DNA from: Marsupella aquatica
Taxonomy: Eukaryota; Plantae; Marchantiophyta
Reading direction: 5' to 3'
Assembly (NCBI GenBank): GCA_973895155.1
Contig: OZ316895.1
Span: forward strand, 18,485,880-18,549,879
DNA length: 64,000 nt
Shown here: piece after piece, positions 1 through 44,466 of the stretch
How the letters are laid out: the number at the start of each line of letters is the position of its first letter
Position numbering within the stretch: position 1 is the first letter of the stretch
Notes under the pieces: generated by a model
What the model saw: the letters and a program-made list of their open reading frames with translations, nothing else
What the model was told of the DNA's origin: nothing
The model's database searches: none
Program-made: the position numbers and the translations under genes

Positions 1-3000
1 GACCCTGAAGGTTTCCGCTTCTTCTTCGTTGGTGGCTCGGCAACTGGTCCCTTCCCCTTCCCACTTACTTCCGGCACTGGTGCAGTTGGCGCGGCTTGTC
101 CTTCGGCAATTACCACCCCTGGTAACTGGTTTGTCCCAACGGGAGATGGACCTGCTGCAGCTAAGCATTTAAATACTGCGGCTTGTTTCTTCAGCCGCTC
201 TGTTTGGTTGTCGGCCCGCCGCTGTAGGTTCTCCATCTTCCTCGTGATTTCCTCCAACTCCTCTTGGGTTTCATCCAGGTCCTTACGTGCCCCCTCCAGC
301 TCGTTTTTGGCCTCCTCCTGCTCCCTGTGGGCTTCCTCCAATTCCTTCTTCAAGGTAGCCCTCTCCTCCTGGGTTGCTCTTAGCTCCTTGTCGAGTTCTG
401 CAATGATGACAGACTCCATCTGGTTCATCTTGGCGTAAGTCTGTTCGAGCATCTCGTCCTTCTCCCTTAGGTCGGCCTTGAAGCTGGCCGTCAGGGACGC
501 AAGCTCCTGCTGCAGCGCCATAATCCCTTGATAGGATTTCCCTAACTCGACCTCCTTCTGCTCAAGGGCTCCGCGGATTTTCTCGAGCTCCCCTTTCAAC
601 GCCCATTCCTTTCTTTGGGTCTCCGCCATGGCCCGGCTGTTGGCTGTTATGTGGGCCTCCTCTGTATTCTTCAGCTCTTGCTTCCACTTCTCCCTCTCTT
701 TGATCGTGTCGGCCAACTCTCCCTGCGTCTGAGTTAGTTTATCCTTGATATTCTGATTATCAGCCTGCGCGGTGTCCAACTGCCCCTGCATGATGTTCAG
801 CTCATGTCGTTTAATCCGCAGTTCATCTTGGGCTTTCTTGGCCGCCCTTAGATCTTCAATCTCGGCTTCCATCCTCCTAAGCCGCCGAATGACCTCGTCC
901 TTCTTGCTTCTCTCTAAAGCCACCGCTTCTTCTAATTGGTGCTTCTCCAACTGCTCCCTATGGAAAAAGGGTCCTACCTCCAACTCCTCTCCAAAGATGC
1001 CGAGCGCAAGTTCCCCACACATCTCACCATACTCCATGGCTCTATTCTTAGCGTAGGTGGAGTAAGTAGAAGTGATCGGCATCGCCCATCGTGGCCTCTG
1101 CTCCCAAGCCGTCCTGCGGATCTCTTCAATCGTGGCTAGAGGTTTGCTTCCTTTTTCGGCTAGCCGCCTGATGTCCTCCGGCCAATCTCCTCCTGGTAAA
1201 TCCTTTTCCTTAGCCAGGGCGGCCTCTTCCTCCTGCTTGATTCGCTCCTGAAATTCCTGCACCGTCTGTTTTATGCTGTCGAAGCTCGGGGGAGCAACAT
1301 CTGGTGGGGGAGACTCAGGGCTACTCTGCTGGTTGGGGTCCCCTCGCACTACCCTTGGAAGTGTGGGGACAAACCGGCCACAGGTCCTTACTCCTGGAAC
1401 GTGATGGTCCGACCCATAGCCGGAATTATCATGGCTGCAGTCCTCCACTGCCTCCTCTACCTCTTGGACGTCCGGCTTCTCCCTCTCCTCTTCGTCGGTA
1501 GGAGCTTCAGGCAATTCTGCCTCAGATTCAGAGCTTGAGGTTCCCACGTACATTCGAACACCTAGCTTGGATTCCGGCCTGATTCTCTCCTTGTCTCCAG
1601 CAAAGGGGTTTTCTCTTGTGAGCCGGTGTAGGCCTACCTCTGTAGTAGTGTCCTGCATTGTTGCCGTTGCCGTTGTTGTTGCCGATGCCGATTTCTTTTC
1701 TTTCTCCAGTAGTTTCAGCAGACTCTGCATGCCTGGTTGCTGCATCGGCAAGTCTTCCTTCCTGGGCCTAAACACCTGCTCGATCGTAGGACTAACAGGT
1801 GGTTGAGGCTTCTCAGCCAACGGCCTCGGCGTTGGAGCTTCCTCGGGTGCCCTTACCTGCAGGGGAAGTACCGGGGCAAAAGTCTGACCTCTGGCATACC
1901 GGCACAACAGCGGCATGTGATAGCCAAGCTGCGACACGCTCCCCATGCCGATTACCTGCTGCTCCTCCTTTAAGATCTTCTTCAATTGGTTGAGGAGGTA
2001 CCCGTTGTAGTCCCGGCTTGGGTCTGGCCTTTCTGCCAGATAGACCTGTGCCTTGCCGATCTCTGCCCTCGGCAAGTTACAATGCATGGTCACCCGCAAG
2101 AAGTTGATCATCTCTCCTATGTGCGGGTTGGTGCAGGTGTTCCGGAAGAAGCCATTCTTCGTTGATGGCCCGGGGAACGACCGGAACTCCTTGTCAGGCA
2201 GGGTCTTCCTGGTATCAACTTTGGTCTTATTGCCTATCGGCAAGCCAAACACTTCGGCAATTACCTTGGGAGTAAGATAGAAATCCTTCCCATATATCCT
2301 CGTGCAATTGGTCTCGGGTTCCCATGACCCCACGAATTCTAATAGGTCTGACTCCGGTACCTCCGGCTTCAGCCATGGTAATCTTACAAAGGCCTCCAAG
2401 CCGGATCCGGCCATGAAGCCTTGGTACTTCTTGGTCTGCATGGCCGTAAAGCATGCATCCTCCTCCCGTGCAAAATGTAGTTGCACCTCCACCGGTAGGG
2501 TTGCCGCCCAGCCCTTCCAGGTGTCATCCCTGGTTGGAATGGCCTTGATGGGATCGACCTCCTCCTCTTCGGCTTCTCCCTGCCTCCTGCTCTGCTGCTC
2601 GGCTGGCCTCTTTGGTGCCGCCGACCTCGTTCTTTTTGCCGGGGTGGCTTCATCGTTGACGGCCCCCTTCCTCTTCATCTCTGCTGCCGTGGAGGTTTCT
2701 CCTAGCACCGTTGCCTGGGTCCACCTTTCCGTGCTACCCTTTAATTCCCAGTGTATGTCGTTGCGTTCTTGATGGCCTCTCGGATGCCGACGACGCTGTC
2801 TTTGCAAAACAGAAGATCGTCGAGTTGATTGGAAGTAGGCGTCCACAGGAACTCGTCCTTGATGAGTTCGCCTCCTAAGAAAGCCGTCTTCTGCAGCTCC
2901 CACAATCGAGCGAACTCCTGCCGTTCTCGAGCTGCCCTTTCTGACTCCTCGTCCTCGTAAGTCTTGATGTACTCAGTTGCCCGTTCGAACAGGCATCCCC

Positions 3001-3289
3001 AGAAATGTGCCGCTTGATTGACGTTGCTCATACCCTCCTTAGGTCGATCATCGGTATCTATTCTCTCCCCGAGTGCTTGCCTAAGCAGCTGACAGTAGTT
3101 GGCCTCCCGTAGTCGTCTGCCTAGTTCGTGCTCGCAAATGAGCCACCATCTCCTGCAAGCGCTCCTTACCCCTCTCCTCTGCCGGTCCTTCTTCCCGTTG
3201 ATCCTTCCTAGCCGCCGACGCTTAACGCGCCCTAACCCTAATCGGGTTTTCACCCTCAGCCTTACCTCCGGCCTCTGCCCGGGTTCCAT
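1..3289 (-). pseudogene. LTR-encoded large ORF (family X protein), frameshifted copy
   Basis: MEPGQRPEV... is near-identical to 28314-31955. A 1-nt deletion near 2765 (AAGAACGCAAC vs AAGAACGGCAAC) shifts the frame; the downstream frame appears open to the window edge. Confidence 0.85.
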
Positions 3290-3404
3290 GGTTGCCCCTA
3301 ATTGTTTATATTTTCCTTGTTTTGTCCCTATACTAAGGTGTTCCTAGGGTGCCTTCCTGCTTTACCCACTTAACCGGCCGAGTGATTCCTGTCTAGGCAT
3401 CACA
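1..3404 (-). mobile_element. 3' LTR (family X, copy 1) of a Ty3/gypsy element; runs off the left window edge
   Basis: On the minus strand it starts TGTGATGCCTAGACAGGAATC at 3404, identical to the start of the TSD-flanked unit at 28199, and is colinear with it. It lies directly after a polypurine tract and the integrase C-terminus. Confidence 0.88.
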
Positions 3405-4355
3405 TAGCTCCCCACTTAATTGTGAAGCGTCCTCGCGAACAACTTCATCTTCGTCCATATAATATTTCTTGAGGCGGTCATAATGGATGCGAACTGGATA
3501 TACCTCTCCCGTAATGTTGGCCAATTGTACGGAGCCATTGGGGAACATCATGGTTACTCTAAAGGGTCCTAACCAGCGAGTGTAAAGCTTTCCTGGAAAC
3601 CTACTATACCTACTGTCATAAAGTAGCACAAGATCACCGGTATGAATACTAACTACTTTTAACCTTTTATCATACTGCTGCTTCATGATATTCTGTCTAT
3701 ATTCTACTCTCTCGGCTGAAATCATTCTCGCTTCCTCTAAAGCTTCTAACCTATATTCTCGCTCCTTTAGGCTCTCCTCCGCTGAGGCTCTTTCCTCAAT
3801 TGTAACTTGAAATGTCGGTATCTCAAGTTGCATGGGTACCAGGGCTTCTTGTCCAAAGGTTAAGAAGAAGGGTGTATGACCGGTAGTGGATTTATAGGCA
3901 AGATTGTAAGCAAAAACAGCAGCAAACAATTTATCATCCCAATCGAGTTTGTTCTGAGCTACTGTCTTGTTCAATATCTTTCCTATGATTCCGTTTGCTC
4001 GTTCTGTCAACCCGTTTGCCTTTGGATGGTAGGGAGTAGTAGGCCTATGTTTAACTAAATACTGCTCATTTAAACGACTAATTATATCATTCAAAAAATG
4101 GGTTCCTCTATCACTAACTAATTCTAGGGGTGCTCCATACCTGGTGAAGATCTGCTCATACATGAATCTAGCCGTAGTAATTGCATCATCCTTCGTTGTT
4201 GGTCTGGCCTCTACCCATTTAGTTGCATAATCCGTAGCCAGGATTATGTACTTGTTCCGTCGAGGGTGGGTCAGTGGTTTCAGAGGTCCAATGTAATCAA
4301 TACCCCACTTCTCGAATGGTGCCAGAGGTAGAATAGGGTGCAGTGGATAAAACGT
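3393..4355 (-). CDS. Ty3/gypsy pol fragment: integrase core and GPY/F C-terminus (5'-truncated)
   Basis: PFEKWGIDYIGP...ATDYATKWVEA...VSDRGTHF...YHPKANGLTERAN (DDE) and WLGPFRV motifs. The stop codon lies a few nt inside the LTR. Confidence 0.95.
   Translation of the reverse strand, partial: TFYPLHPILPLAPFEKWGIDYIGPLKPLTHPRRNKYIILATDYATKWVEARPTTKDDAITTARFMYEQIFTRYGAPLELVSDRGTHFLNDIISRLNEQYLVKHRPTTPYHPKANGLTERANGIIGKILNKTVAQNKLDWDDKLFAAVFAYNLAYKSTTGHTPFFLTFGQEALVPMQLEIPTFQVTIEERASAEESLKEREYRLEALEEARMISAERVEYRQNIMKQQYDKRLKVVSIHTGDLVLLYDSRYSRFPGKLYTRWLGPFRVTMMFPNGSVQLANITGEVYPVRIHYDRLKKYYMDEDEVVREDASQLSGELCDA
3405..3417 (-). promoter_or_regulatory. Polypurine tract of the gypsy element
   Basis: Minus strand reads AAGTGGGGAGCTA immediately before the LTR TG start. 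Confidence 0.75.
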
Positions 4356-4356
4356 T

Positions 4357-6928
4357 CACAAAAACATCCTCCATCCCAAACATGCAGTGTACCTGAAGAC
4401 TCAGGGATTCGAGCACCTCGCCTCCCTCCCCTGGAACACTTGCAGGTACTACGGGGAGGACATGACGGAGTTTGTCAAGAATTATGACGACGCGCATCAA
4501 CATACTCCGCTGCGGGAAAGGAGTATGTCCCTCACGGAAGAATGGCTCAGGATGATCTTCGGGTTACCCGAAGGTGATCATCGAGTCAAATCACGGGCTC
4601 CCGGGGGCAAGGGAGCCAAGTACCAATCTTCAAGTTTTCCCTCAGAGGGAGCAGTGGACAACGGGTTCGTGATGAGGACCTGCCTCATCCCCGAGATAGC
4701 TGAGCGACTGGAGTTCCAGAGGTACACCCTCCACATGATGGAACCCCGGGGGGAGATCTCCGCCGCCCAGGTTATCCAGGTCGAGAACTATTGACCTAGG
4801 AAGTGGGCGTCGTACTTCGCTAAGAAATTCCATGAAGAGATAGAGCGGCGAAGGAAGACGCTGTACATTGGCGGGAAGGCGTATTTCGCTAGCCACATCG
4901 AGATCATTCTTGAGTGGTACGCCCGGTTTGATCGACGAACCCTTCCCCGTGTCAACGTTACAAAGCTGGTCCCTGCTACGTGGGTTTTCCCGGCCTTGGA
5001 GAGACGGCCCCAACCCGAGGCCCGGAGTCCAGCGGACACGCCAGCTTCACCCACCCCACCTCCACAAGTAGCTGTAGTCGTAACCGAGGAGGTACCGGAT
5101 GGGTCGGTTGTCGCAACCGTTGATGCGACCCAACAAGCCGGGCTAAGTACAGAAGTCGGTACGGCGGAGGTCTTACCCGAGCCCGGGTCTCCCAGAGACC
5201 CACCGGTGGCTATTCCGGAGAACCGGACATTGCTGCAGGAGGACACTCCAGCCCCTTCCAACGTTACGTCCCCAGGGCTGGACGTCACTGCCCCGGCCCC
5301 CGCGCGTGTTGACGTCTGCCCGTGCCCAACTCCGGACAGGCACAACTTGGACCACCCGAAACTCTTCGTACCGGGTACATTTCTGAACGGGCTTCTGGGA
5401 GATTTCTCTCATCAAATTTCCTGGGATACCGGAGAGTTCATGGCCCGGAAGGTAGCCTATTTCTTCAATCAGGAGTTGGTTGCCGCAGTAAAGGCAGGTC
5501 GGGCCCAGTCAGAGGCCCTTCAGAGGATAGAGCGGTACCGGGTGGAGTCCGTGTACCTAAAGAACGAAGTTGCGGCTCAAGAGGCTGAGCTTCTGCAACT
5601 ACGACCCAAGGTTGCAGCTGCCGATGAGTTGTTAGCAAAGGTGCACGGTCTTACCGCCCTAGCCGAACAGGCCAAAGTTGGGAACGAGGCCGAGATTACA
5701 CGACTCCGAAACCAGATTGACAGTTTGAAGAATCAAACTGTCACCTGGCAGAAAGACCTGGAGGAGGCCGAGGAACGGGCCCAGCGGGACACGGCGGAGA
5801 TAGCCACGCTGTAGGCCGAGGTGGCGCGGCTCCAAACCGAGGCCGAGAAGCAGGACCAGCTGGCGGGTAAACTGACGAGCGACACCCAGCAGTAGAGGAG
5901 ACGGACGTGGCGAGGCGAGAGAACAAATCTCTTCTGGACCAGGTCCAGCTCCTCAAGGCGGACAATGACAGGCTTCGAAGGCAACGGGATGGCCGCTCCC
6001 ATTCGGGCGGCTCTGGCAAGCGTGCCAGGCATTAGCAGCGGAGTAGGAATAGATTAGGATTAGGACTGGCTTAGTCAGGCTCTTGGGACAGGCACCTGCC
6101 TTAGGTATAGCAGCGCTGCCATGCTGTCCAGCCTGCGTAGATTAGGATCTTCTAATAAGACACAGCCGTTTTCTGGCCTGACTGTCAGCTTGGTTAGGAC
6201 CTTAGTCAGCGAATATTCGGCAAGAGGACACCCCGTCCCTCGGCCCTTAGTATCTAGTGCACCCCTCGATAGAGGTGAGGGGGGGTTTTTAGTTTCAGAG
6301 TTGGACGTCCGCGGTATATGCGGGGAGTCCCGACCTTTGGGAATGAAAGAGTACCAAGGGGGGGTAGGACTAAGCTTGCCGGGCGAGTGCAGAGCCGGGC
6401 TCCGTTGTAGTGTGCCCTCGGCCTTGAACCTATTCATTCCGGGGCTGTCGGGTCAACTAAGTGTACGCATATGTTCCCTTTGTAGTAAAATCCTTTCCCA
6501 TCATTTTCCTTTGTGTAAATCAAGATTGTATGCATGTGCGCGTGTATGTGTGTGGGTTTCTCGTATATGGGTGGCAGCGCCAGGCCGAACGCACTACCCG
6601 GGACGTGCATAGGGTGCAGCCTACGGGTAAGTGGTTGCGAGCATGGGTTGAGGACCTGTATCATCGAATCCGGATCGAAGGCGGACAGCACGAAGGCTTA
6701 GAAGCCCTTAAGCCGGGGTCGATCCTACTATCGACTAAGGTACGTTCCGGCGGCGGAACACAAACCATACCTAGGAGGTGTCCGTATTTAGCAGTATGCG
6801 CACTTAGCGCTAGTTTACGAGAATAAGGTGCATTACGTGCTTCCCTTCCTGCCCGAACCCTCAGATTTACAAGGGATGTGCCCGTCTAAGCTGAAGTCTG
6901 AGTTAAGGCCGAAGCCGACGACGTGACA
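4357..6928 (+). mobile_element. 5'-truncated probable LTR of a second, diverged coding-LTR family (family Z)
   Basis: Ends ...GACGTGACA at 6928, abutting the middle of an exon of another gene. Same layout as family X: homologous ORF, TTAGGATTAGGA shortly after the stop, then ~0.9 kb non-coding tail to CA. Left end and TSD are lost. Confidence 0.62.
4387..6035 (+). pseudogene. Family Z ORF, homologous to family X protein (conserved core, Pro-rich linker, coiled coil)
   Basis: In-frame stops at 4792 and 5812 and a frameshift near 5895-5915. NGFVMRTCLIPEIAERLEFQRYTLHMMEPRGEISAAQV aligns with NGFFRNTCTNSHIGEMIDFLRVTMHCNLPRAEIGKAQV of family X. Confidence 0.75.
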
Positions 6929-17300: not shown

Positions 17301-17581
17301 ACAAAAAAAGAAAGATAGACTTAGATCTGTCCTCAATTTTGATTCGGACGAAGATGATGGGACGCCAGAAGATGATGTTCCTGAGGATGTCAATGACGGC
17401 GGGAAAGAGGAAACCTGACATGATGGGTCAACGGAGGACAGTGAAGAGTCTTCCGAGTAATTTTTGTCTCTCGTAAGCTCCTTTATCCTTTCAATTGTTG
17501 GCTAACCATCAATTCCACCGGTTCTATCTGTTAAGTACTTACTTCCTCTTTCTCTTCCAATTCTCTTTTGAGCAGATCAGA

Positions 17582-19379: not shown

Positions 19380-20459
19380 AGCCCTGCCCATTTCCCCTTG
19401 ACCCGACCAGCTCCCAACCAGTCCAAGTCCTTAGTGTGTGTCACCAGCTTGGCTCCTTGCCTTTGCTAGCGCCATGTCTCGTCGCTCACAAGTCTCCCCA
19501 TGCTAAGTCCTCCCCGGATGGCCTATCTGGGCCTGGACCATAAGGGAGCTTGGCATCAGAGTCAGCGATGCCGGAGCTAAGTGATAAGGTAGTCGAGTTC
19601 CGCGACTCTCCCTGACCCGGGAGGCTTCTGTTTTTTGTCATTCCCCTCCCATGCAGCTAGTGCCTTCCCCTTGCCACTTACTTTCGGCAAAGGTGAGGGC
19701 ACCTCGGCTTGTTGTTTGGTCAGTACCACGCGTTGCAACCCTATTGTCGCCACCGAGGTCCACTTGTTGCGTCCAGCCAATTTAGCTCATCAGTCTGTTT
19801 CTTCAGCCGCTCAGTTTGGTTGTTTGCCCGCCTTTGCAGATTTTCCATTTTCTGGGCAGCGTCCTCCAACTCCTCTAGGTCTTGTCTAAATCCCCGCAAG
19901 TTTGCTCCAACTCCGCCATGTTCTCGTCCAACTCGTTTTGTAAGGCCTCCCTCTCCTCGTGGGTTGCTTTCAGCTCCGCGTTGAGCTCATGGACAACATC
20001 AAACTCAATCTTATTCATCTTCTTGTAGGTTTGATCAAGCATGTCACCCTTCTTACGTAGCTCGGCTTGAAAGTTGGCCGACAGGGTTTCAATGTCTTCC
20101 TTTAACTTGTCAATGCTCCTGTAGGCCTCATCAAGGTCGTCTTTTTTTTTATGGAGGGCCCTACGGCATTCTTCAATCTCATCCTTCAATGCCCACTCCT
20201 TCCTTTGGGCCTTGGCCATGGCTTTGTTGCAGACCGCTATGTGAGAAGCCTCTGTCTTCTTCAGCTCTTGCTTCCACTTCTCCTTCTCCTTGAGGGCCTC
20301 GGCCAAATTGTCCTGGGTCTGGGCTAGTTGCCCTTGCATGATGCTTATCTCATGCTTCCTAACCCGCAGCTCGTCCTGGGCCTGCTTGGCCGCTTTTAAA
20401 TCTCCAGCCTTGGCTTCCTTCTCTCTAAGCCGCCGGATGACTTCCTCCTTCTTCATCCT
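19380..20459 (-). mobile_element. Older, diverged family X LTR fragment (coiled-coil/C-terminal part); left end uncertain
   Basis: KKEEVIRRLREKEA...QRKEWALKDE...VSGKGK matches the family X protein; cut at 20459 by another X-like copy. Confidence 0.78.
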
Positions 20460-23183
20460 TGTGATGCCTAGCCAGGAATCCCTAGGCCAGTAAAGTGGTA
20501 AAACCGGGAGTGTACCCTGAAAACACATTAGTATAGTAACAAAACAAGGAAAATATAAACAATAAAGGGTGACTATGGAACCCAAGCCGAGGCCGGAAGT
20601 AAGGGTGCCACGACAAGGAGGGCGATTACGGTTAGGGTGCACTAATTACCAGCGGCTATGGGTAACCAACGGAAAGATCGACCAGGCAAGGGGGTAAGGA
20701 CCGTTCACAAGGAATGGCGGCTCATTTGCGAGCACTGACCAAGCAGAGGATTGCAAGAAGCCAACAACTGCCAGCTGCGGAGGAGAACACGGGAGGGGCA
20801 TAAGCAGCTACCAAGCAAGCCAGAGAATGGAATGAGCAACATCAATCAAGCAGCACATTTTTTGGGATGCCTGTTCGAACGGGCAAGTGAGTACGTTGGG
20901 ACTTACAAAGAGGAAGAATCAGAAAGAGCAGCCCGCGAGCGACAGGAACTTGCTTGACTGTGGGAACTGCAGAAGACAGCCTTCTTAGGAGGAGAATTCA
21001 TCAAGGCTGAATTCTTGTGGACACCTACTGGCGACGAGCTTGATGACCTTTTGTTCTGTGAGAACAAAATCATCGGCATCTAGGAAGCCATCAACCGCTG
21101 CAACGATAAACATTGGGACCTGAAAGGCAGCACGGAGGCATGGACAAAGGCAACCATGCTTGGAGAAACGTCCACAGCAGCCGCAATGAAGAGGAAGGGG
21201 CCCAACAACGAAGAGGCCACCCCCGCAAAGAGAACGAGGTCGGAGAATGGCTTCTTCCGGAACACCTGCACCAACCCGCACATTGGAGAGATGATTGATT
21301 TCTTGTGGGTAACCATGCACTGCAACCTGCCAAGGCTAGAGATCGGCAAGGCACAGGTCTACCTGGCCGAGAGGCCAGACCCAAGCCGGGACTACAACGG
21401 GTACCTCCTCACCCAACTGAAGAAGATCTTGAAGGAGGAACAACAAGTGATCGGCTAGGGAAGCGTGTTCCAGCTTGGCTATCACATGTCGTTGTTGTGC
21501 CGGTATGCCCGGAGTCAGATCTTTGCCCCAGTACTTCCCTTGCAGGCAAGGGCACCAAAGGAGGTGCTGAATAGAGGCCGTGTCACGCGATTGACATGGG
21601 TCTTAACACCAAAAACGTCACTATGGGTGCCAAAACCATCTCCTTGTACCTGAGGATCACGAAGGGATGTTGTGAAGGCCGGTAAACACCAATTTATGCC
21701 CTTAACACCAGACTATCATAGCAAGACTCTATCACACATCACCCAAGCTCAATCCCAAGGAACCAAGGTTGGGGATCAGATCTGCGCTCATGATAGTTCT
21801 GGTGAGAAGGGGTCTTCATATCGGGCCTGTACACACAGGGCCTAGCGCTACGGTGCGCATAGGTCTATACGTATGCTTACTGTCATAGGTATGTTTCTAT
21901 TCCGCCGCCGGAATGTACCCATAAACCAGTGACTCCTGACTGATTCCCGGCTTAGGGACTTCTAAGCCATTGCCCCACCACTCTGCCATTCCACTCTCAG
22001 CAATTAGAGCTATGACAGTCCTCACCCAGCCCGCTTCAATGCACCCTGTACACCTCTTAGTGGCGCTGCTAGTCCCATCATACACTCAGATTGCCTCACA
22101 CACACACACATCCATGAGAGAAATGAGGCCTAAGAGGAAAACTCAATTAGATTCAAAGATGTGCACAATAGTTCACTGAGAACACTTGATCCGAACACTA
22201 GGGCCGAATGTTTTCTCCTCCAGATTGTGACGTGCTTGCCCCGCAAGCCCCATGCTTGCCATGCAAGCTCAATCCTGAACCTGAGCCCGGCTCACTCCAG
22301 ATTGTGACGACAGATTGGACTCAAACCAATCCCGTACTTGCCTTGCAAACTCAATCCTGAACTCAACCTCCTTCACTGCACTTCATTCTTGGGGGCACAT
22401 ACAGATCTCACACCTCCAATTCAGAACGTCAAGTTACGCATGCATAGTTGACTCGACTTCAAAGCTGGTACCAGGCCTAACGACGATCTATCCCAGACTG
22501 CAATGAGGCCCGGCCTCACGCTTGCCCTGCAAGCTCAGCTCTGGCCATAAATCCCTTAGTGCTCTCTACCAGACAAAGGCCGGGACTCCCCATGGATCAC
22601 GTAGCCTTGCCAGACTGAACTGTAAATGCTCCTCCTGCTGCCCCTCAATCAGTGTCTCAGCCTCCCTAATGTGCTCACCACAAATCAAATTGACATCCTC
22701 CCCACAGTTTACAATCACCAATACATCACCTATCACCAAGGCTCTGTATCGGGGGAAAAGAACCCAGTTGTGTTGCCCACTAGAAAGAGCCACAATCCAG
22801 CTCGCAAACCTAGCAACCCATTGCTGTGAAGCTTGGCTGATTACTCCCTGAGTAATAGCACAACCAAGCTCTCCCCAACACACAGCGTCCAAGTCCAGCC
22901 TTGCTTGCACAGAGCTCCTCCCTGCTGCTCAGTCTAAGTGAGATCACACAACTGAAGTCCCCCCCTGCCTCTCCTTGGAATGGATTTTTTATAAATTTTA
23001 ATACCGTGAAACCCCACGGATAGGGGGGGACAACAAAGGCCAATGCAGCCAGAACCTAACAACACAGCAGGGGCAACAGTCCGGGGCCAACACACCCCAG
23101 CAGCCCCACACCCCCAACAGGGCCCCTGGGAGCCCAAGAAAACTAATGAGCAACTAACAATGACACTACCACGCCAAAAGACA

Positions 23184-26100: not shown

Positions 26101-27109
26101 GTGAGTCCAAAATGGCATTTTTAAGAGCGCGCAATTTTGCCCTTAAGAACTCCAGTTCTTCCTCCGCCTCCTTTGGTCGTGCCTGCAACGCCTTATAAGT
26201 ACTTCTTAGTTGCATACTTGCCTTGGCAAACCGAAGGTGAGGAACCATGAATCCTCTCCTCCCCTCCTTCCAGGCCAACTCGAGCAGCTCCACGTCGGCC
26301 TGCCTCCTAAGTAAAGCCGGATTTGCCTTGAAAAACTTTGCTTTACCTCTCTCCCCATCAGTACAATTTCCTTGCAGCCGAACCCACAGCATAATCGGGT
26401 CATGATCCGATAATGCAGAACCCCCCTCATGTCGCAACTCCATAATTTTGCCTAGCCACCAGCCTTTGCCGCTAATATAAAAACGGTCCAGTCTGGACTG
26501 CGACCAAACTCCATTCCGGTTCCTTCTCCATGTGAACTTAGCTCCCACAGCACCACCTCTTAGTGTGTACACATCTTCCATGTCAAACCGAACTTTAAGA
26601 AATCTCCAGAACTCCGCCTCCCGGCCACCGATAAGAGATGAGCCACCAATTGAGTCCTGTTGCAACTCAGTCATGTTGAAGTCCCCACAGAGAATCCAAT
26701 TCTCCGCTGGTAGCCCCACCTTGAGGTCATACCACAGCACGGCCCTTTGTCGTGTTGAATTAGGCGCGTAAATTGATACTACTCCCGTCCTTTCTCCATC
26801 AATCTCCAGGATAATCCACACCGCCCGCCCCAGTTTTAACAGTCCCGATGCCACTACCTTCAGCTCCGGGTGAACTAGCAGAGCTGTGCCTCCTCTTCCC
26901 TCATCAGGAGCCGACGAGAAGAATTGATACGTAGGGAGGATAGCCCTCAAAGCCAAATCCAGGCGAAATTGTTCAGCTTTAACTTCTTGTAGAGCCAGGA
27001 TGCTGACAGGGGCCCGTAATGACTGCACCCAATTCTTTACTACATGCTTACGATTTGTCTCACATAAACCACACACATTCCACGATGCCAACAACAGCAA
27101 TTCGCCCAT
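23184..27109 (-). pseudogene. LINE-B ORF2 (endonuclease, RT, zf-RVT)
   Basis: SWNVCGL, GDFN, SDHDP, GVRQGCPLSP, LFADD and CKYC...HLFVQC motifs. Frameshift near 24535 and stop near 24303. Confidence 0.95.
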
Positions 27110-28198
27110 CTAGCCTAAATTGGAATCACCGAAGCAGCGGCCTCCATCTCTGTCTCCGAGTTGAGTTAAATTTGAGCGCGTCCCCCCGGAGACATCTCCA
27201 CATCCGAGCTAATTCTCAGGTTGCCTTAGACCGCAGCAAAAGGTATCAACTTAAGCCGGTTACCACCCCTGTTTACACCAGAGGACCCCTCTCCCACAAC
27301 CTTACCTATCTCCTCTCCATCGGATCGCTCGGTACCTGCCAGCCCTTTGTGTCCCCGTGAGGACCTGTCACCGCCACCTGCATCAGACAAGCATCCTCGT
27401 GAGAAGCTTAGGGAACGTTGTTTCTTGGAATCACCTTTCAGTTTGTCTTTGGTAACAGTGGGAGGAGTTCTCAGCTCCTGCTTCCGTGCTCTGGCCTTGA
27501 GTTTACTGTTTGAAATGTAAGTCTCATATTCAGACATCTCTGCGTCCGAATCGCCATGATACGAGAAAGCTTCTTTGCCAGAGTCCCCCCGATTAAAGTC
27601 AGAGGCCTGTAGCAGTCCAGAGTTCCCTTGCTCCGCAGGCAAAGGGGGCGGCTCAAAAATCAAAGCCTTGGCATCCAGCACAGTCTCCTTCCTTCCATAC
27701 TTGCTCCTGCATGCCAATGGGAGAACCACCTCCACCGGAGCTAACTCATTTCTAGCCACCACTGCCAAGGGCATCCCCGCATTCAGATGAACAGGCTCAC
27801 CTGTCATTAAGCCCGAACCCTCAGCCTGGTTTTTGAGCCTGCTACTCTCAGAGACCATCCTCTTGATCTGCTCCATATCTACCTCCATAGCCTTCCTCTG
27901 CTGGTTTTCCACCTGCAATGCCCTGGCCTCCCTGAATTCCGCCCTGGCCTTGGCATTATCCAAAGCCCGTTGAGCCTCATCCGCATCTGCTTCTGAATGG
28001 CGTTCATCATCCTTCTCATCTGGAATCTCTGCTTCAACCACCATAGGCGGCTCATATGCCCTTGATTCTCCGCAATTACGCGCCAGGTGACCCTTCTTAT
28101 TACATTTATAACAGTGATATGGAATGTTGCGAAATGTCACTGGTTGCCATATCACGATATCATCCCTAATTCAAATTCTAACACTAGCAGGGACCTCC

Positions 28199-31100
28199 TG
28201 TGATGCCTAGACAGGAATCACTCGGCCAGTTAAGGGGGTAGAGCAGGAAGGCACCCTAGAAACACCTTAGTATAGGGACAAAACAAGGAAAATATAAACA
28301 ATTAGGGGCGACCATGGAACCCGAGCCGAGGCCGGAGGTAAGGACGCTGGGGGTGAAAACTCGATTAGGGTTAGGGCGCGTTAAGCGTCGGCGGCTAGGA
28401 AGGATCAATGGGAGGAAGGACCGGAAGGCCGGAGGGGTAAGGAGCGCTTGCAGGAGATGGTGGCTCATTTGCGAGCACGAACTAGGCAGACGACTACGGG
28501 AGGCCAACTACTGTCAGCTGCTTAGGCAAGCACTCGGGGAGAGAGTAGATACCGACGAGCGACCTAAGGAGGGTATGAGCAACGTCAATCAAGCGACACA
28601 TTTCTGGGGATGCCTGTTCGAACGGGCAACTGAGTACATCAAGACTTACGAGGACGAGGAATCAGAAAGGGCAGCTCAAGAACGGCAGGAGCTCGCTCGA
28701 TTGTGGGAGCTGCAGAAGACGGCTTTCTTAGGAGGCGAACTCATCAAGGACGAGTTCTTGTGGACTCCTACTTCCAATCAGCTCGACGATCTTCTGTTTT
28801 GCAAAGATAGCGTCGTCGGCATCCGAGAGGCCATCAAGAACGGCAACGACATACACTGGGAATTGAAGGGTAGCACGGAAAGGTGGACCCAGGCAACGGT
28901 GCTAGGAGAAACCTCCACGGCAGCAGAGATGAAGAGGAAGGGAGCCGTCAACGATGAAGCCACCCCGGCAAAAAGAACGAGGTCGGCGGCACCAAAGAAG
29001 CCAGCCGAGCAGCAGAGCAGGAGGCAGGGAGAAGCCGAAGAGGAGGAGGTTGATCCCATCAAGGCCATTCCAACCAGGGATGACACTTGGAAGGGCTGGG
29101 CGGCAACCCTACCGGTGGAGGTGCAACTACATTTTGCACGGGAGGAGGATGCATGCTTTACGGCCATGCAGACCAAGAAGTACCAAGGCTTCATGGCCGG
29201 ATCCGGCTTAGAGGCCTTTGTAAGATTACCATGGCTGAAGCCGGAGGTACCGGAGTCAGACCTATTAGAATTCATGGGGTCATGGGAACCCGAGACCAAT
29301 TGCACGAGGATATATGGGAAGGATTTCTATCTTACTCCCAAAGTGATTGCTGAAGTGTTTGGCTTGCCGATAGGCAATAAGACCAAAGTTGATACCAGGA
29401 AGACCTTGCCTGACAAGGAGTTCCGGTCGTTCCCCGGGCCATCAACGAAGAATGGCTTCTTCCGGAACACCTGCACCAACTCGCACATAGGAGAGATGAT
29501 CGACTTCTTGAGGGTGACCATGCATTGTAACTTGCCGAGGGCAGAGATCGGCAAGGCACAGGTCTATCTGGCAGAGAGGCCAGACCTAAGCTGGGACTAC
29601 AACGGGTACCTCCTCAACCAATTGAAGAAGATCTTAAAGGAGGAGCAGTAGGTAATCGGCATGGGGAGCGTGTCGCGGCTTGGCTATCACATGCCGCTGT
29701 TGTGCCGGTATGCCAGAGGTCAGACTTTTGCCCTAGTACTTCCCCTGCAGGTAAGGGCACCCGAGGAAGCTCCAGCACCGAGGCCGGTAGCAGAGAAGCC
29801 TCAACCACCTGTTAGCCCTACGATCGAGCAGGTGTTTAGGCCAAGGAAGGAGGACTTGCCGATGCAGCAACCAGGCATGCAGAGTCTGCTGAAACTACTG
29901 GAGAAAGAAAAGAGATCGGCATCGGCAACGACAACGGCAATGGCAACAATGCAGGACACTACTCCAGAGGTAGGCCTACACCGGCTCACAAGAGAAAACC
30001 CCTTTGCTGGAGACAAGGAGAGAATCAGGCCAGAATCCAAGCCAGGTGTTCGAATGTATGTGGGAGTCTCAAGCTCTGAATCTGAGGCAGAATTGCCTGA
30101 AGCTCCTACCGACGAAGAGGAGAGGGAGAAGCCGGACGTCCAAGAAGTAGAGGAGGCAGTGGAGGACTTCAGCCATGATAACTCCGGCTATGGGTCGGAC
30201 CATCACGTTCCAGGAGTAAGGACCTGTGGCCGGTTTGTCCCCACACTTCCAAGGGTAGTACGAGGGGACCCCAACCAGCAGAGTAGCCCTGAGTCTCCCC
30301 CACCAGATGTTGCTCCCACGAGCTTCGACGGCATAAAACAGACGGCGCAGGAATTTCAGGAGCGAATCAGGCAGGAAGAGAAGGCAGCCCTGGCCAGGGA
30401 AAAGGATTTGCCAGGAGGAGATTGGCCGGAGGACATCAGGCGGCTAGCCGAAAAAGGAAGCAAACCTCTAGCCACGATTGAAGAGATCCGCAAGATGGCT
30501 TGGGAGCAGAGGCCGCGATGGGCGATGCCGATCACTTCTACTTACTCCACCTACGCTAAGAATAGAGCCATGGAGTATGGTGAGATGTGTGGGGAACTTG
30601 CGCTCGACATCTTTGGAGAGGAGTTGGAGGTAGGACCCTTTTTCCATAGGGAGCAGTTGGAGAAGCACCAATTAGAAGAAGCGGTGGCTTTAGAGAGAAG
30701 CAAGAAGGACGAGGTCATTCGACGGCTTAGGAGGATGGAAGCCGAGATTGAAGATCTAAGGGCGGCCAAGAAAGCCCAAGATGAACTACGGATTAAACGG
30801 CATGAGCTGAACATTATGCAGGGGCAGTTGGACACCGCGCAGGCTGATAATCAGAATATCAAGGATAAACTAACTCAGACGCAGGGAGAGTTGGCCGATA
30901 CGATCAAAGAGAGGGAGAAGTGGAAGCGAGAGCTGAGGAATGCAGAGGAGGCCCACATAACAGCCAACAGCCGGGCCATGGCGGAGACCCAAAGAAAGGA
31001 ATGGGCGTTGAAGGGGGAGCTCGAGAAAATCCGCGGAGCCCTTGAGCAGAAGGAGGCCGAGTTAGGAAAATCCAATCAAGGGATTATGGCGCTGCAGCAG

Positions 31101-32869
31101 GAGCTTGCGTCCCTGACGGCCAGCTTCAAGGCCGACCTAAGGGAGAAGGACAAGATGCTCGATCAGACTTACGCCAAGATGAACCAGATGGAGTCTGTCA
31201 TCATTGCAGAGCTCGACAAGGAGCTAAGAGCAACCCGGGAGGAGAGGGCTACCTTGAAGAAAGAACGGGAGGAAGCCCAGAAGGAACTAGAGGAGGCGCG
31301 CAAGGACCTGGATGAGACCCAGGAGGAGTTGGAGGAAATCACGAGGAAGATGGAGAACCTCCAGCGGCGGGCCGACAACCAAACAGAGCGGCTGAAGAAA
31401 CAAGCCGCAGTATTTAGGTGCTTGTCTTCATCAGGCCCAACTCCAATTGGGGCAACCAAGTTACCAGGAGTGGTACTGGCCGAAGAAAAAGCCGCGCCAC
31501 TTGCACCAGTGCCGGAAGTAAGTGGGAAGGGGAAGGGACCAGCTGCCAAACCAGAAAAGAAGAAGAAATGGAAACCTTCAGGGTCAAGGAGTAATCCGAC
31601 TCCACAGGCCGTGGTGACCAAGGAGGTAGACCCAGCACCAACCTCCGGCATGAACACGGCAATAGATCCCGCTATCATGAAAGGTGGGGATGGTGCGGCC
31701 CAAGCAGAACTACTCAGTAATGAGGCCGGTATCCCAGATCCGCCTCTTGAGCAGGCCGGGGAGACCGTAGCCGAGGCTGAGGCCGTAGCCGATTATGATT
31801 CCCGAGGCGATGCCGATGCCGATGGTGGACCCAGTCAGGCCGATGGAGAGTTGACTCAGTCAAGGGCAGGTAATCTGTCAGAAAACGAACCTACGGCAGT
31901 GGCTGAGGAGGAAGCATTGGGGGCGTCCATTGAGGATCCACCACCGGTGTCGTGACGGTGCAAGGGCGCCGTTCCTTTTAGGAAGGGCGGACGTGGAGGG
32001 AAGAGGCGTGAGTGGGCAGGGCGGGCGCTGATCTCCAAGTTTAGGATTAGGATCAGGACCAGGAGGCGGCCCTGACACTTAGCTTAGTGGGATTGCGGTT
32101 CCACTGGTAGGAGCAACACTTGTGCTCCTGCCTTGCTGTACATAGGTAGATCCGGGCAAGTAGATTACTGTTAGGTAGTTTAGGCTTACGCTGCAAGGAA
32201 TTAGGCGGATCCACTACCAGGATAAGTACCTGGGCAGCGGGGAGCTCAGGGCCTCTTCTTTAGCAAGTTTTTAGTTTGCACCAGCCGGGCTGGGATCAAG
32301 TAGTAAGAGAAGCTCTCGGTTAGTCATACAGTGACCCTTGTGTATATTCATGTTTCCTCATGCCTAAGAGCTGAATAGAGTTGGCCTCACGGCTTAGTTT
32401 GCAGAGCTTGTGTATGAGATGTATTGTTTGTATGGCAAGTGCATGGTATGACTCAGTCAGAAGGAGTCATTTTGCTATTTGTGTGTCGCATTAACTTGTG
32501 TGAAGAGTGCCCACATCAACTAAAAGGAAGGAAAGTAAGCAGGGGAGTGAGAGTTGGATGTGTCGAGCTGAGAGAGGTCTTAGCGGCTAACCAAGCCTAT
32601 TGGGGATCATTCCGGCGGCAGAATCCAAACATACCTAACAAGACGGAGGGGAAGACGAGGGAAGGCCTAGATTAGGCCGGCTACGTATCTCATGACCCGA
32701 TGAAGGATCTGTCCTGTATATGTGTGTAAAATGTTAATAGTAGTAGTGGAAGGTTAGCAGCGTCCCATGCCGCTAAGCCGCGGAAACGGCCTCGCCAAGC
32801 GCGAAACCTGCGGGAATCGGCTTGAGCTGGGGGGTTTCTTGGGTTTAGGGAGCCATGGGACGCACCACA
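28199..32869 (+). mobile_element. Complete 4,671-bp solo LTR of family X
   Basis: Termini TGTGATGC...GCACCACA (7/8 inverted), perfect 5-bp TSD CCTCC (28194-28198 and 32870-32874). No gag/pol and no internal terminal direct repeats noticed. Confidence 0.9.
28314..31955 (+). CDS. LTR-encoded ~1,213-aa protein (basic N-terminus, PMD/plant-transposon-like core, acidic/Pro linker, long coiled coil); one premature stop
   Basis: ORFs 28314-29651 and 29661-31955 share a frame; the TAG at 29649 is CAG in copy 1 and CAA in copy 3. Confidence 0.85.
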
Positions 32870-35009
32870 CCTCCCGATCCGTGTCCCAAAGAATGCACGC
32901 TCTATCATGGGGGAAGGAGCTAAACTGATCTCCCTGGATGTAGTAAAGCAGAGGGCCCAGTGAGCAAGCAATCTGCCTCCTGCATCCCTCCAATGCAAGA
33001 TCCCGAAAAGGAAGCTCTATCCATACCGGCAGCTTAGTGAATGTCTCATTTTTAATGTCAAAAGAGGGGTCCCATGGGAACGTGTATACAAATCTCCGAT
33101 CCATAAACCATGGGGCAGAGTTTAGCGCCATGTCCCGATGATCCGGATGCTCAAAGACAATCATATAAAACCCCTTCCCCACAAATTTTATCTGGAGGAC
33201 CGGCCAATTACCTTGGCTAGTCATCACCTCCTCCACCCACTCTCGAAACACCTGTAGCAGAGGTGGCTTGTCCGTGAAGAAGCACATAAGTGCACAATTA
33301 TACAGTTGTCTCACGTTGAGAGCAGCTTCCGCCATAGTCCAATCGAGAGTTGTGAAAAGCTTCTTATCAAGATTCCCTTTAGATCGAATCCCAATATTTT
33401 GTAGAATTCGCACACATTCCTCAGAAGCCTCCTCCTCAACAGGAATCCTCAGCTCCCCCAGTGTAGACTCCTGTCGGCCCACATCTCTCAGCGCATTTTC
33501 TGAGTCCCGCCATATATGCCCCCCTACTACAGGATCACCTCCAGGCATCTCGCTTTCCACGTCCATCAGATCTCCCCAGTCCAGACGCGCTTGTGAGTCT
33601 ACAATGCTTCTAATCCCGATAGCCGAGCTACTGCCACCTCTGACCGGCAGTAAACCCTGGCTCACCTCCGAATCTCGCCTGGCATCTTGAGCCGAGAATC
33701 GCTCCCGCAACCCCCCATTTTTGTCCCCTGAATGCTCCTTTCTTCCAGGGTCCTCTGCCTCGCCAGTGCCACCATACTGAAGCTCCACGGGCCCCCTCTC
33801 AAGCTGCCTCCCGAACTCACCCATCTCCCTACCGGTTGTAGGAATGCGTCCGCCTCTCACCCCTCTATCCCTCACCAAGGGTTCCACCTTTCCGTAGTAA
33901 TCCATTGTTGCCATAGTATCTTCCCTGCTTCCACAGTCGCAAGGTAACAGCAATGCAACCAAGCGAAAGGTAAGAAAACAAATTGGACGTACCTTCTCCC
34001 ACTTCAGAGCGGCTCCCAATCAGAATCCCCACATCTCCCAATCACTTACATACATATGATCTCTGGAGTCACGATGAGCTGCTCCACCACAATTTCAGAG
34101 TGACACCGCAATAGTGCTCCTCTGAGATCCTAGTGAAGAATCCCACAGTACAGCGCAAATGCCCACCTATCTTCTAGAGTCAGAATCCACCAGAACATTC
34201 CTCCCGTTTTGACTCCCGAAAAAGACGTGGTATAGCATCCTCCTGGTGCAGCGGCCCTGTGCCAATGTCACCCTTATACCCCACCAAATGCGCTCCACGG
34301 GGACCAACCTCAGCAAGAAAGTGTCCCCTCATCCACCGCCTTGAAGCGGCAGAGTCCACTGTTGCATAGTGACCTTACTGGCACAACCTAAATCTTGCTA
34401 CAGCCGCGATAACCCCCAGCCAAGATACCTGGGTCAAATCAACTCTCACTTGTCACCGCCTATCTAAACGCTTATGCCATCCTTCTGGGCAGCACAGCTC
34501 GAATCTCCGCATTCCAATCCGGATCCCTTCCTATCACTCGTTAAGTGTATACACAGCCCACACGTTAAGTGTATACACAGCCCGGCGCCGCCTGTGCGCC
34601 TTTTCAGTTCAGCTCAGTCTCCGACATATTCTCCATCAAATTTCTCCTCCCCCCCTGCCTCTATCGGGGGCTGCTCTATATACTCTCATACTGAGCCCAA
34701 ATGGGTGGATACTACGCTGCTGGAGCCCCATCCCAGCCCTAATAGAGCCGCCACTATCTCTAACTACTGAACCCTAACTCGCAATTTTATTTCTATCTCG
34801 AATTGGCTATGTACTTTGGATTCGGCCCTCCTCCATAGTTTTTGCGAGCTTGCGCCTCCTCTCCCGATTTCTCTATTCAACCATTTTCTGCGTGGATAGC
34901 GGCGTTGGAAGCGGCTTGAGCTCCTCTTTCCAACGAGGTCAATTATAGCCGATTTGGTCAAATACACAGAGAGTTATGCCCCCGCAACCGAGAGGGGTAC
35001 TCACTGCTG

Positions 35010-35330
35010 CGCTAACCCAAGTTACATAGCTAACCCGAGTTTGGCTAACCTAGATATCCTATCTAACCCGAGTAGAGCTAACCCGTGGTCTCGGGTTAGG
35101 CCGCTACCCGCTATCCGCTATCCGCTAACCTAGCCTAAGCTGAGCCCAAACCCGAGCTTACCTATGCTAAGCTGAAGCCGTGCTGACCTGAGCTAAGCTG
35201 AAGCCGTGCTGACCTGAGCTAAGTTGAAGCCGTGCTTACTTGAGCTAAGCTGAAGCCGTCCTGACCTGAGCTAAGCTGAAGCCGTGCTCACATAAGCTAA
35301 GCCATGGTCGAGCTTGGGTTAACCCGAAAC
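35010..35330. repeat. Tandem 26-bp repeats and TAACCC-rich motifs inside LTR Y
   Basis: GCTAAGCTGAAGCCGTGCTGACCTGA about five times (35166-35300), preceded by repeated CTAACC(C). Confidence 0.85.
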
Positions 35331-36956
35331 TAAAGCCGAATTCGCTAATTCCGGCCACAAGTTAACCCATCACACTAATCAGGTCGTATCTTTCTTAATA
35401 CACCTCCGTTTCTCGAGTGTTTTATATCGATTTTACTCGCCTTGACCAGATATTTCCAATGCTCTTTACAGATCCGGATTTGGTGACATATTGAAAGAGA
35501 TATGGTCATCGACCACCCGCGACATAGCTTTTATTTCCCTACTCTTAACGCCATGATTGCCCTTATTCTTGCCATCTTGCTAATTGTTATACAATATCAA
35601 TAGCTACTCCTTGCATACAACAACCTACTTAATCAGATTACAAAATAAGGACCATGTCATTGGCGTCACAGGCCGGCAGCAGAGAAACCCAACCAGCCCG
35701 ACAACCCTACAATCGAGCAAGTGTTTAGGCCAAGGACAGAAAACTTGCCAATGCAGCAACCAGGCATGCAGAGTCTTCTGAAATTGCTGGAGAAGGAAAA
35801 GAAGGTTGTTGCGGCAACTGCACTGGTACAGGACACTGCTCAAGAAGCAGGCCTAAAACGACTCACAAGGGAAAACCCCTTTACCGGAACCAAGGAAAGA
35901 GGGAGGCCGGAACACGAGCCGGGGGTACGGATGCATGTGGGAGCCGCGAGTCCAAAAACCAATGGAGAGCAGCCCAAAGCTCTTGGTCGCGATGAAGAGA
36001 AGGAGAGGAGAGCCTGGGAGCCAGAGGAGGAACCAGGACGCGTGAGCCGTGTTTGGCAGGAGGCCGCGTTTGAAGCAGGACTAGGAGAGGAGCAAAAGGA
36101 GCCGGTAGTCCAAGCCGGGAGGGAGGTGGTGGAGGACTATGACGATGACAACTTTGGCTATGGGTTGGACCATCCTGTCCCAGGAGTGAGGACATGTGGC
36201 CGCTTCATCCCCACGCTTCCTAGAGTAGTTCGAGGGGACCCCAACCAGCAGAGCAGCCCCGAGTCTCCCCCACCAGATGTCTCTCCCCCGAGATTCGACA
36301 GGATGAAATAGATGGCATAGGAGTTGTAGGAGCAACTCAAGGAACAAGAGGAGGCAACCCTGGCCAAGGAGAAGGATTTACCCGGGGGAGAATGGCCAGA
36401 GGACATCTGGCGGCTTGCAGAAAAACAAAGCAGCCCTCCACCCGCGTTAGAAGAGATCTGGAAGGCGGCTTGGGAACAAAAACCGCGGTGGGTGATGACG
36501 ATGACTACTACTCACTCCACATATGCGCAAGACAGAGCCATGGAGTACAGGAAGATGTGTGGGGAACTTGCGCTCAGCATCTTTGGGGAGGAGTTGGAGT
36601 AGGGACCTTTTTCCAGAGGGAGATGTTGGATAAAAGCCAATTGGAGGAAACGGTGGCTTTGGAGAGGATGAAGAAGGACGAGGTCATCCATTGGCTTAGG
36701 GAAAAGGAAGCCGAGGCAGAAGGACTCGGACCCAAAGGAAATTGGCCGACACGGTCAAGGAAAAGGAGAAATGGAAGCGGGAGCTGAAGGACGCAGAGGA
36801 GACCTACATAACAACCAGCAATCGGGCCATGGCGGAAATGCAGAGGAAGGAGAGGACACTGAAGGGGGAACTCGAGGATCTCCGCGGAGCCTTTGAGCAG
36901 AAGGAGGCCGAGTTAGGGAAATCCTATCAAAGGATTATTGTGTTGCAATAGGAGAT

Positions 36957-38424: not shown

Positions 38425-39050
38425 GTTTGCTTACTTGGATTTGGCCGCCCCTATGCCGAGACCCCTTGGGGCAACGGCACAGCTTGGCCAACTTTTCAAC
38501 TAAACATTTTGCCACTCCTTGCATGATCCCCAAACCCCATTGGTAACCCCAAAGTTTTTGTGACTTAAAGTTGTTTAACTGAAAGTCGCTGTAGCCGCTT
38601 ACTTGGGTTTGGCCACCCCAATGCCGAGACCCCTTGGGGCAACTGCACGGCTTGGCTGACTTTTCAACATGCCTTTTTCCTAACCCTTGCATCCCCAAAC
38701 CCCATTGGTAACCCCAAAGTTTTGGTGACTTAAAGTTGATTAACTGAAAGTCGCCGCTGCCGCGGCCGCTTACTTGGCTTTGGCCGCCTCAATGCCGAGA
38801 CCCCTTGGGGCAACGGCACGGCTTTGCCAACTTTTCAACACTCAGGCCTTTTTTCCTAACCCTTGCATCCCCCAACCCCATTGGTAACCCCAGATTTTTG
38901 TTACTTAATAGTCTAACTTAAAGTCGCCGCGACCGCTTACTTGGCTTTGGCTGCCCCAATGCCGAGACCCCTTGGGGCAACGGCACGGCTTGGCCAACTT
39001 TTCAGCGGCACAAATTTCCTACCCCTTGCATGGAATCCCATTGGTAACCT
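38425..39050. repeat. Four ~170-bp tandem repeats upstream of the Helitron ORF
   Basis: GCTTACTTGG...ATGCCGAGACCCCTTGGGGCAAC...CCCATTGGTAACC recurs at ~38430, 38597, 38767 and 38935. Confidence 0.88.
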
Positions 39051-39339
39051 CATCCATGTTTACTCGGCTCCTTACTCGCCAACGCCATTCCCCCTTGGGG
39101 TGGTGGTGTGGTTTGTGTCACCTTCCAACTTGGATGCTTGAGAGGAGGTGGTCCCCTCATATGTACTTCTGGGGACCTGCCACCCCCGGACCACATTTGG
39201 TCCCCATATTTTGGTCCCCAACCCAAGCATTTTTCTGTTATAAACGGACTTGCAAGAGTGGCCTCTGGTGTCGTCGTCATCGCCACACCCTCTTATCACC
39301 GCTCCCTCTTGTTGTTCTCCGTTCTCCTCGTCGCTCCCT

Positions 39340-44227: not shown

Positions 44228-44466
44228 ATTTCTCACTGCCCTCGTCCCGAATCTCTTTAATTGAAAACTTATCGTGTCTCTCTTCCCAAAATCTGCTTTA
44301 CTTGTAGATCGTTCCCTTTGTGTTCTTGCTCACATCAACCCTCGCACTACCCTCCGCACACTGCACCCTTTGCCCCAACTTTAAATCCATACCTTAATGT
44401 CACTCATGAACAGAAATGGTGTTATCCAAGTACATCAATCAGTACATCAATCAAAAATTAATAAGG

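Follow-up and report, generated by a model that had tools for sequence, protein, structure and literature searches.

The 64-kb window analysed here, a 64,000-nucleotide stretch of Marsupella aquatica contig OZ316895.1, contains a 4,671-bp unit (copy A) that is most likely the solo long terminal repeat (LTR) of an LTR retrotransposon and that carries, in sense orientation, a long open reading frame (ORF) belonging to a gene family under purifying selection (Table 1). The unit opens with TGTGATGC and closes with GCACCACA, and its inverted termini agree at 7 of 8 positions, a match to the right end that is reached by only 2 of the 258 TG sites in the unit, the left edge among them. Copy A sits inside ORF1 of a long interspersed nuclear element (LINE) and splits that ORF1 in frame: a paralogous LINE ORF1 (8801–9763) can be followed to residue 177 on one side of the insertion and picks up again near residue 177 on the other, the flanks reading WDTDRE at the right edge and EVPASVRI at the left edge versus WDTTREIPQSVEV in the paralog, and removal of copy A together with one CCTCC copy restores the ORF1 phase. 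Self-BLAST of the unit detects neither terminal direct repeats nor an inverted repeat longer than the 8-bp ends, and Pfam detects neither gag nor pol, both ORF pieces giving sub-cutoff coiled-coil-type matches only. These results bear out the initial annotation, a first reading of the bare sequence, in its description of TG...CA ends, a CCTCC target-site duplication (TSD) and an absence of gag and pol. A non-autonomous terminal-repeat retrotransposon in miniature or large retrotransposon derivative (TRIM/LARD) is ruled out, since the unit lacks two terminal direct repeats.

Table 1. Features of the gene-bearing LTR, its copies and related elements in the window.
Feature	Coordinates	Strand	Remarks
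Copy B, 3' LTR	1..3404	-	95.1% identical to copy A; cut by window end; 1-bp frameshift
Gypsy integrase	3393..4355	-	5'-truncated; rve; no Pfam chromodomain match; stop codon at LTR nt 10–12
Polypurine tract (PPT)-like tract	3405..3417	-	AAGTGGGGAGCTA; immediately 5' of copy B
Element G	4356..6928	+	Distantly homologous ORF, then a tail of ~1 kb that closes with GTGACA; left end lost
Copy D	19608..20453	-	Diverged fragment (64%) spanning the coiled coil
Copy C, first part	20460..21580	+	Same 5' edge; about 75–85% identical; internal deletion
Left TSD CCTCC	28194..28198	+	Continuity of LINE ORF1
Copy A, most likely a solo LTR	28199..32869	+	4,671 bp; TG...CA; 7/8 inverted termini; no terminal direct repeats
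TATAAA	28293..28298	+	Sole TATA[AT]A of the unit; candidate promoter
1,213-codon frame	28314..31955	+	pol sense; in-frame stop at codon 446; codons 1–87 unconstrained
GTAAG	28338..28342	+	Splice-donor-like; in 3/3 copies; putative function
Likely real coding region	28575..31955	+	From Met88; 1,126 codons; purifying selection over codons 88–1040
Conserved N-terminal domain	28575..28913	+	aa 88–200; homologs P0006, P0007, P0009
Bipartite nuclear localization signal (NLS)-like motif	28932..28982	+	KRK-x10-KRTR; aa 207–223
Core domain	29061..29729	+	aa ~250–472; homologs among liverwort proteins and in element G; by language model, weakly similar to Transposase_32/ATHILA ORF-1
Charged heptad-like region	30681..31418	+	~245 aa; predicted coiled coil; sub-cutoff ATG16 match at aa 843–939
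Non-coding tail	31956..32869	+	914 nt; T-richer; 7 TGTA motifs in 32099–32869, putatively plant polyadenylation-like
28-nt motif	32610..32637	+	Shared by LTR-like units E, E2 and G at their 3' ends
Right TSD CCTCC	32870..32874	+	Continuity of LINE ORF1
Copy C, continuation	35671..36954	+	Beyond nested solo LTR E (TSD GGCCG)

The link to a retrotransposon is provided by copy B, which aligns to copy A over 3,408 columns at the identity given in Table 1 and which, as had been proposed, begins directly behind a gypsy integrase (Pfam rve, E 2e-10) and a PPT-like tract. Specifically, the integrase frame passes through AAGTGGGGAGCTA and terminates at nucleotides 10–12 of the unit, therefore leaving no internal space for an extra ORF. 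The short tail that follows the rve domain enters the LTR and gives no Pfam Chromo match. By its integrase, the element classifies as a Ty3/gypsy element of the non-chromovirus type, where the gypsy domain order rests on the integrase being the last pol domain, the upstream reverse transcriptase and RNase H being missing from the window. Alternatively, the unit might be an independent mobile element with its own gene, either integrase-mobilised and non-autonomous or DNA transposon-like, with copy B having landed by chance just behind an unrelated integrase of the gypsy type. Such an element would fit the observation that a single copy is linked to pol and that the nearest named protein family is labelled 'putative plant transposon protein', but it would be expected neither to lack a terminal inverted repeat past 8 bp, nor to supply the stop codon that the integrase frame needs, nor to share its 3' motif with other LTR-like units. 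Moreover, a 10-of-11-purine/GGGG pattern precedes only 38 of the 9,005 TG sites in the window (0.4%), the real junction itself having 9 of 11 purines, and this rarity of upstream PPT-like tracts also counts against a chance insertion, leaving the independent element a very improbable explanation.

Two further copies lie in the window. Copy C starts with the same first 12 bases as copies A and B, next to an unrelated, non-PPT flank, and the 5' edge is thus identical in all three copies that reach it (A, B and C), with a different flank in each; copy D is a more diverged fragment. Because the TSD could be checked against the paralogous LINE, the PPT junction precedes copy B, the pol stop lies inside the unit and three copies have a common 5' edge, both the LTR identity and the solo status assigned to 28199–32869 are supported. 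A full element would be predicted to carry two copies of the LTR and its gene. The interval 20460–36954 displays four-level nesting, in which copy C encloses solo LTR E (2.4 kb; 21581–35670; TSD GGCCG), which encloses the LINE (15-bp TSD), which in turn encloses copy A. Head-to-head junctions of opposite retroelement fragments are seen at 20453/20460 and 4355/4356, both devoid of TSDs, and suggest local inversions or deletions.

The reading frame begins 115 nt inside the LTR edge and occupies 78% of the unit in the pol sense, so that the position and span originally given to it hold, but it is not open: copy A has an in-frame TAG at codon 446 (29649–29651), and copy B reads through that codon but carries its 1-bp frameshift near A-position 28843. 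Selection was assessed as the ratio of nonsynonymous to synonymous substitution rates (dN/dS) by the Nei–Gojobori method with bootstrap intervals, shifted frames serving as control. The ratio is 0.31 (0.23–0.44; 1,085 codons) for A versus B, 0.27 (0.21–0.34; 712 codons) for A versus C and 0.27 (0.17–0.38; 279 codons) for A versus D, while the 12 values obtained in the two shifted frames range from 0.43 to 1.95, with 10 of them at or above 0.68. A chance ORF is rejected by these ratios. The between-copy comparison suggested in the initial annotation thus returns purifying selection, at about 0.3, and by this measure the ORF is a real gene at the family level. Copy A itself is a dead pseudogene, broken by its stop codon, and the expectation that a solo LTR leaves a whole gene behind therefore fails for this copy.

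Constraint is distributed unevenly along the frame. The corresponding ratio of proportions of differences (pN/pS) is 0.13–0.40 over codons 88–1040, 0.92 versus copy B and 0.82 versus copy C over codons 1–87, and 1.08 and 0.82 over codons 1041–1095. Since codons 1–87 are unconstrained, copy C carries indels within them and the independent homolog P0006 begins at the Met88 position, the protein likely starts at Met88 (28575) and comprises 1,126 aa, corresponding to 72% of the unit, rather than the ~1,213 aa proposed at the outset; a start at Met1 is rejected for want of constraint on those codons.

The predicted protein combines a conserved N-terminal domain, a core domain, an acidic linker and a long charged, heptad-like region. 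Its KRK-x10-KRTR motif resembles a bipartite NLS. Hydropathy reaches a maximum of 0.91 (19-aa window) and indicates no transmembrane segment; an Env-like protein is rejected on this ground. A phmmer search against 1.84 billion representatives returned 17 matches at E<=0.001, of which 16 were kept, P0016 being dropped as a repetitive bacterial adhesin-like chance match. Among the 10 homologs whose sources were examined, eight occur in Logan only and the other two are a Calypogeia fissa protein and an NCBI/ENA/JGI cluster; a second C. fissa protein came from a profile search. These sources suggest that the host of the family is a liverwort or another non-seed plant. The profile of alignment A1 matched 2 of 7,997 proteins and none of 5,848 longer ones (1,379–3,935 aa, a range too long to be useful), and a word-index search with the stop-read-through protein found 0 matches among 7,994 candidates. 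A sequence search of the PDB gave nothing below E 0.02. Viral contigs (searched with P0025 and the integrase) and metagenome contigs (searched with the LTR 3' end and P0025) yielded no usable genomic context of relatives, and exact matches of the LTR in metagenome contigs numbered 0. In the ESM Atlas, the nearest named clusters are ATHILA ORF-1 and Transposase_32 for two queries only ~27% identical to each other, the window and C. fissa domains, a weak indication that the core domain may be related to the Athila ORF1/Transposase_32 family.

Element G supplies a second family with a related ORF. Its ORF shares 24.7% amino acid identity with the copy A core (E 1e-11) and resembles Calypogeia-type proteins (31%, E 8e-20) more closely than it does copy A. 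The order of parts is that of copy A, namely the ORF homolog, a coiled-coil-like part, a tail and a CA end, with no convincing internal PPT or TG edge. Element G adjoins the truncated integrase head-to-head without a TSD, and because its left end is lost, its status as an LTR can only be inferred.

Copy A looks like a promoter, an ORF and a 3' untranslated region within one LTR. TATAAA, at LTR nucleotide 95 and 21 nt before the first ATG, is conserved and falls within a run of 25 nt without a mismatch between copies A and C, whose leaders are 72% identical overall; such a run is reached by 353 of 20,000 shuffles. In plants, transcription starts 25–35 nt past the TATA box, which would place the start just after the first ATG and fits the unconstrained codons 1–87. 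Both GTAAG sites of the leader, the second at 28437, are kept in all three copies, and leader splicing is nevertheless a guess because the leader is T-poor. An out-of-frame upstream ATG (28457–28525, + strand), present in the same three copies and opening a 22-codon frame in copy A, sits between the two splice-donor-like sites and a conserved CAG, and could be an upstream ORF or part of a leader intron. The initial annotation placed a large accessory gene in U3, the unique 3' region of the LTR. The selected gene inside the LTR stands (dN/dS ~0.3), whereas its location in U3 is unproven, the sole TATA[AT]A lying upstream of the ORF; an ORF in U3 with a dedicated left-edge promoter and an ORF in a very long R (terminally repeated) region appear about evenly matched. 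PMC3485330 offers a precedent for the latter in the rice Retrosat2 annotation, which, like copy A, is a very long plant gypsy LTR (>3.2 kb) with a TATA near the left edge, and which has a 244-nt U3 (1–244) and a ~2-kb R (245–2266). Unlike copy A, Retrosat2 has its extra ORF, ORF0, upstream of gag-pol, and the same text states that LTRs do not encode replication enzymes.

At the other end of the unit, the score of the 28-nt motif against E, E2 and G is reached by 0, 0 and 1 of 500 shuffles, respectively. Alignments of the whole 914-nt tail with E, G, D and F lie mostly within the shuffle range, the common part being the short motif only, and the 5' ends of A, B and C display a weak likeness to E (26–136 of 2,000 shuffles). 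Family E is ORF-less (longest frame 120 aa) and occurs at 21581–22972 and 34663–35670 (- strand) and at 46115–47323 (- strand); it has the 3' motif and a TATAAC-AAT near the left edge in common with the coding LTRs, and is possibly a related family from which the gene was lost or in which it was never present.

Collectively, these features make it probable that the unit is a solo LTR from a gypsy family of the non-chromovirus type, one in which the LTR absorbed an Athila-type sense accessory gene through a shift in plus-strand priming. A number of results weigh against this. No 5' LTR copy followed by a primer-binding site (PBS) or gag occurs within the window, no intact copy of the ORF is found there, and the right end of the LTR is present in copy A alone. 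Regarding the protein, Pfam PF20167, PF03078 and PF10536 match no query or homolog scanned; the Atlas scores (0.89 for the window domain and 0.81–0.82 for the C. fissa domain, the latter also scoring 0.79 with the plant mobile domain, PMD) fall below the tool's 0.9 line and serve as leads only; the AlphaFold models are poor, with predicted local distance difference test (pLDDT) values of 46 for the core and 53 for the N-terminal domain; Foldseek searches against the PDB and viral sets give no match at E<=0.001; and the N-terminal likeness to Calypogeia proteins is not significant (z 1.3–1.6; hhalign probability 3%). In the tail of copy A, furthermore, purine tracts followed by TG (31994–32029 and 32548) are as purine-rich as the real junction, and these tracts may be remnants of a former LTR boundary, or may point to a different architecture altogether.

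In that architecture, an ordinary short 3' LTR (~0.3–0.9 kb) would begin at a purine tract behind the ORF, the ORF would be internal and Athila-type, the tract after the integrase would be a central PPT, and the 4.67-kb unit would be a sub-genomic product or non-autonomous derivative integrating alone. The missing 5' LTR would be compatible with this layout, as would sense extra ORFs 3' of pol, which are the Athila norm, and central PPTs are reported for a plant copia element in PMC7197481. The internal TGs, however, fit the right end at 2–4 of 8 positions versus 7 of 8 at the left edge; copies A and C begin at the identical base without a PPT ahead, A with a verified TSD; and the window contains no free-standing short-tail copy. 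To our knowledge, no mechanism repeatedly yields integration-ready ends at a central PPT, which further disfavours a short LTR, and this explanation is considered improbable.

If the gene-bearing LTR is accepted, its origin can be proposed as follows. An Athila-type sense ORF behind pol would have entered the LTR when plus-strand priming shifted to the purine tract at the integrase end, and the purine tracts just 3' of the ORF stop (31994–32029) may mark the former LTR edge. Expression would proceed from the TATA at LTR nucleotide 95 through a ~250-nt leader with splice-donor-like sites, with the protein initiated at Met88 and the transcript polyadenylated within the 914-nt tail, so that each LTR would be a self-contained gene. 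Genomic RNA could arise from the same promoter, with the ORF in a giant R, or from a second promoter near the 3' end, with the ORF in U3. Solo copies would arise as the long LTRs recombine, and would then decay.

The product may be a nuclear oligomer that binds DNA or chromatin and acts in trans to help the element replicate, a proposal made because of the NLS-like motif, the Athila-ORF1/PMD-like core, the long coiled coil and the lack of a transmembrane segment. By analogy, a transactivator or anti-silencing factor is the function toward which we lean, with somewhat less than even confidence: TRP28 is predicted to bind DNA (PMC11963269), PMDs are encoded by gypsy elements (PMC5418596), and PMD-C proteins bind to DNA motifs and counteract Polycomb silencing (bioRxiv 10.1101/2024.09.27.615353). 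The main functional rival likewise accepts a true gene-bearing LTR and assigns the protein to the particle or pre-integration complex, where its coiled coil would mediate nuclear import, chromatin tethering of integration or RNA export. An integrase without a chromodomain and a long coiled coil with basic patches would suit such a tether, and PMC7264820 proposes roles of this kind for accessory ORFs (aORFs) of plant elements. Nothing speaks directly against this rival, but for the related domains TRP28 and PMD-C, binding to DNA motifs and an influence on expression have been predicted or demonstrated; a particle or integration role is considered the less likely of the two. More broadly, and only tentatively, copy A and element G could represent a lineage of non-seed-plant gypsy elements, with at least two families about 25% alike in protein, in which the LTR is a full gene cassette consisting of a left-edge promoter, a nuclear protein of >1,100 aa of the Athila-ORF1/PMD type and a polyadenylation tail. 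Were this so, full elements would carry two copies and solo LTRs would stay expression-competent, and LTR recombination, which usually disarms an element, would spread a trans-acting anti-silencing gene across the genome; were genomic RNA to start at the left-edge promoter, R would exceed 4 kb.

The window also holds other features. A decayed, intron-containing gene lies between a LINE and LTR fragments at 14538–17420 (+ strand), where pieces that terminate in an N6/N4 DNA methylase domain (PF01555, E 1.9e-8, over the cut-off) come after a 481-aa orphan frame, possibly a transposon-borne bacterial-type methyltransferase. An intron-rich host gene at ~41280–43000 (- strand) has exons which, judged by eye, resemble organellar elongation factor P. 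A full-length, decayed Ty1/copia element occupies ~52005–58129 (+ strand), its ~170-bp LTRs being 92% identical, and diverged tandem arrays are located at 38429–39052 (~170-bp period at 38.4–39.0 kb), 44465–44977, 48020–48355 and 49303–49902.

A gene inside an LTR departs from current descriptions, which treat plant LTRs as non-coding and confine accessory ORFs to the internal region. With a 3.4-kb gene under selection in this position, the concept of the solo LTR is altered: such an LTR could be transcribed as a unit of its own and act in trans. The length of U3 or R that reverse transcription is able to copy is likewise put to the test, and the unexplained Athila-ORF1-like proteins gain a compact handle. 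An element flanked by two coding LTRs of 4.7 kb each is likely to be overlooked, or annotated in error as an orphan host gene. No case of an LTR-encoded ORF in plants was found in the published literature, subscription papers lying outside the search. REXdb classes extra ORFs as upstream or downstream of pol and lists LTRs up to about 5 kb (PMC6317226), Vicient and Casacuberta place aORFs in the internal region (PMC7264820), and Ogre LTRs measure 1.9–6.5 kb, long terminal repeats being treated as non-coding (PMC6431247).

Among known systems, Athila is comparable in being a non-chromovirus gypsy element with a sense ORF (ATHILA ORF-1, PF03078; Transposase_32, PF20167; the 'env-like' ORF2) downstream of pol and a 5-bp TSD, and it provides the nearest named Atlas clusters for the core. 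Of 167 REXdb elements, 166 have ATHILA ORF-1 in sense on the 3' side of pol (PMC6317226), and PF20167 is described as related to PF03078 in PMC11728184. Athila ORFs, however, are described as lying between pol and the 3' LTR and being expressed from spliced subgenomic RNA, whereas in the copy A family the ORF lies past a PPT-like tract and a TG edge, inside the repeat, pol stops in the LTR, and the protein has no Pfam hidden Markov model match and no transmembrane segment. The extra ORFs of Retand and Ogre (TRP28, plant mobile domain and Smc-like coiled coils) similarly encode long accessory proteins that join a conserved domain to a coiled coil, but those of Retand are antisense and internal, in elements whose LTRs span 315–1,194 bp (PMC11963269). 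No homology was found to mouse mammary tumour virus (MMTV) sag or to nef. Like the ORF described here, MMTV sag and primate lentiviral nef are sense ORFs in or overlapping an LTR, yet they belong to vertebrate retroviruses, and the MMTV LTR of 1,300 nt (PMC2664473) limits its ORF to at most about a third of the length. The finding is real and unusual in that a 4.67-kb unit, most likely a plant gypsy LTR, encloses a selected gene of >1,100 codons.

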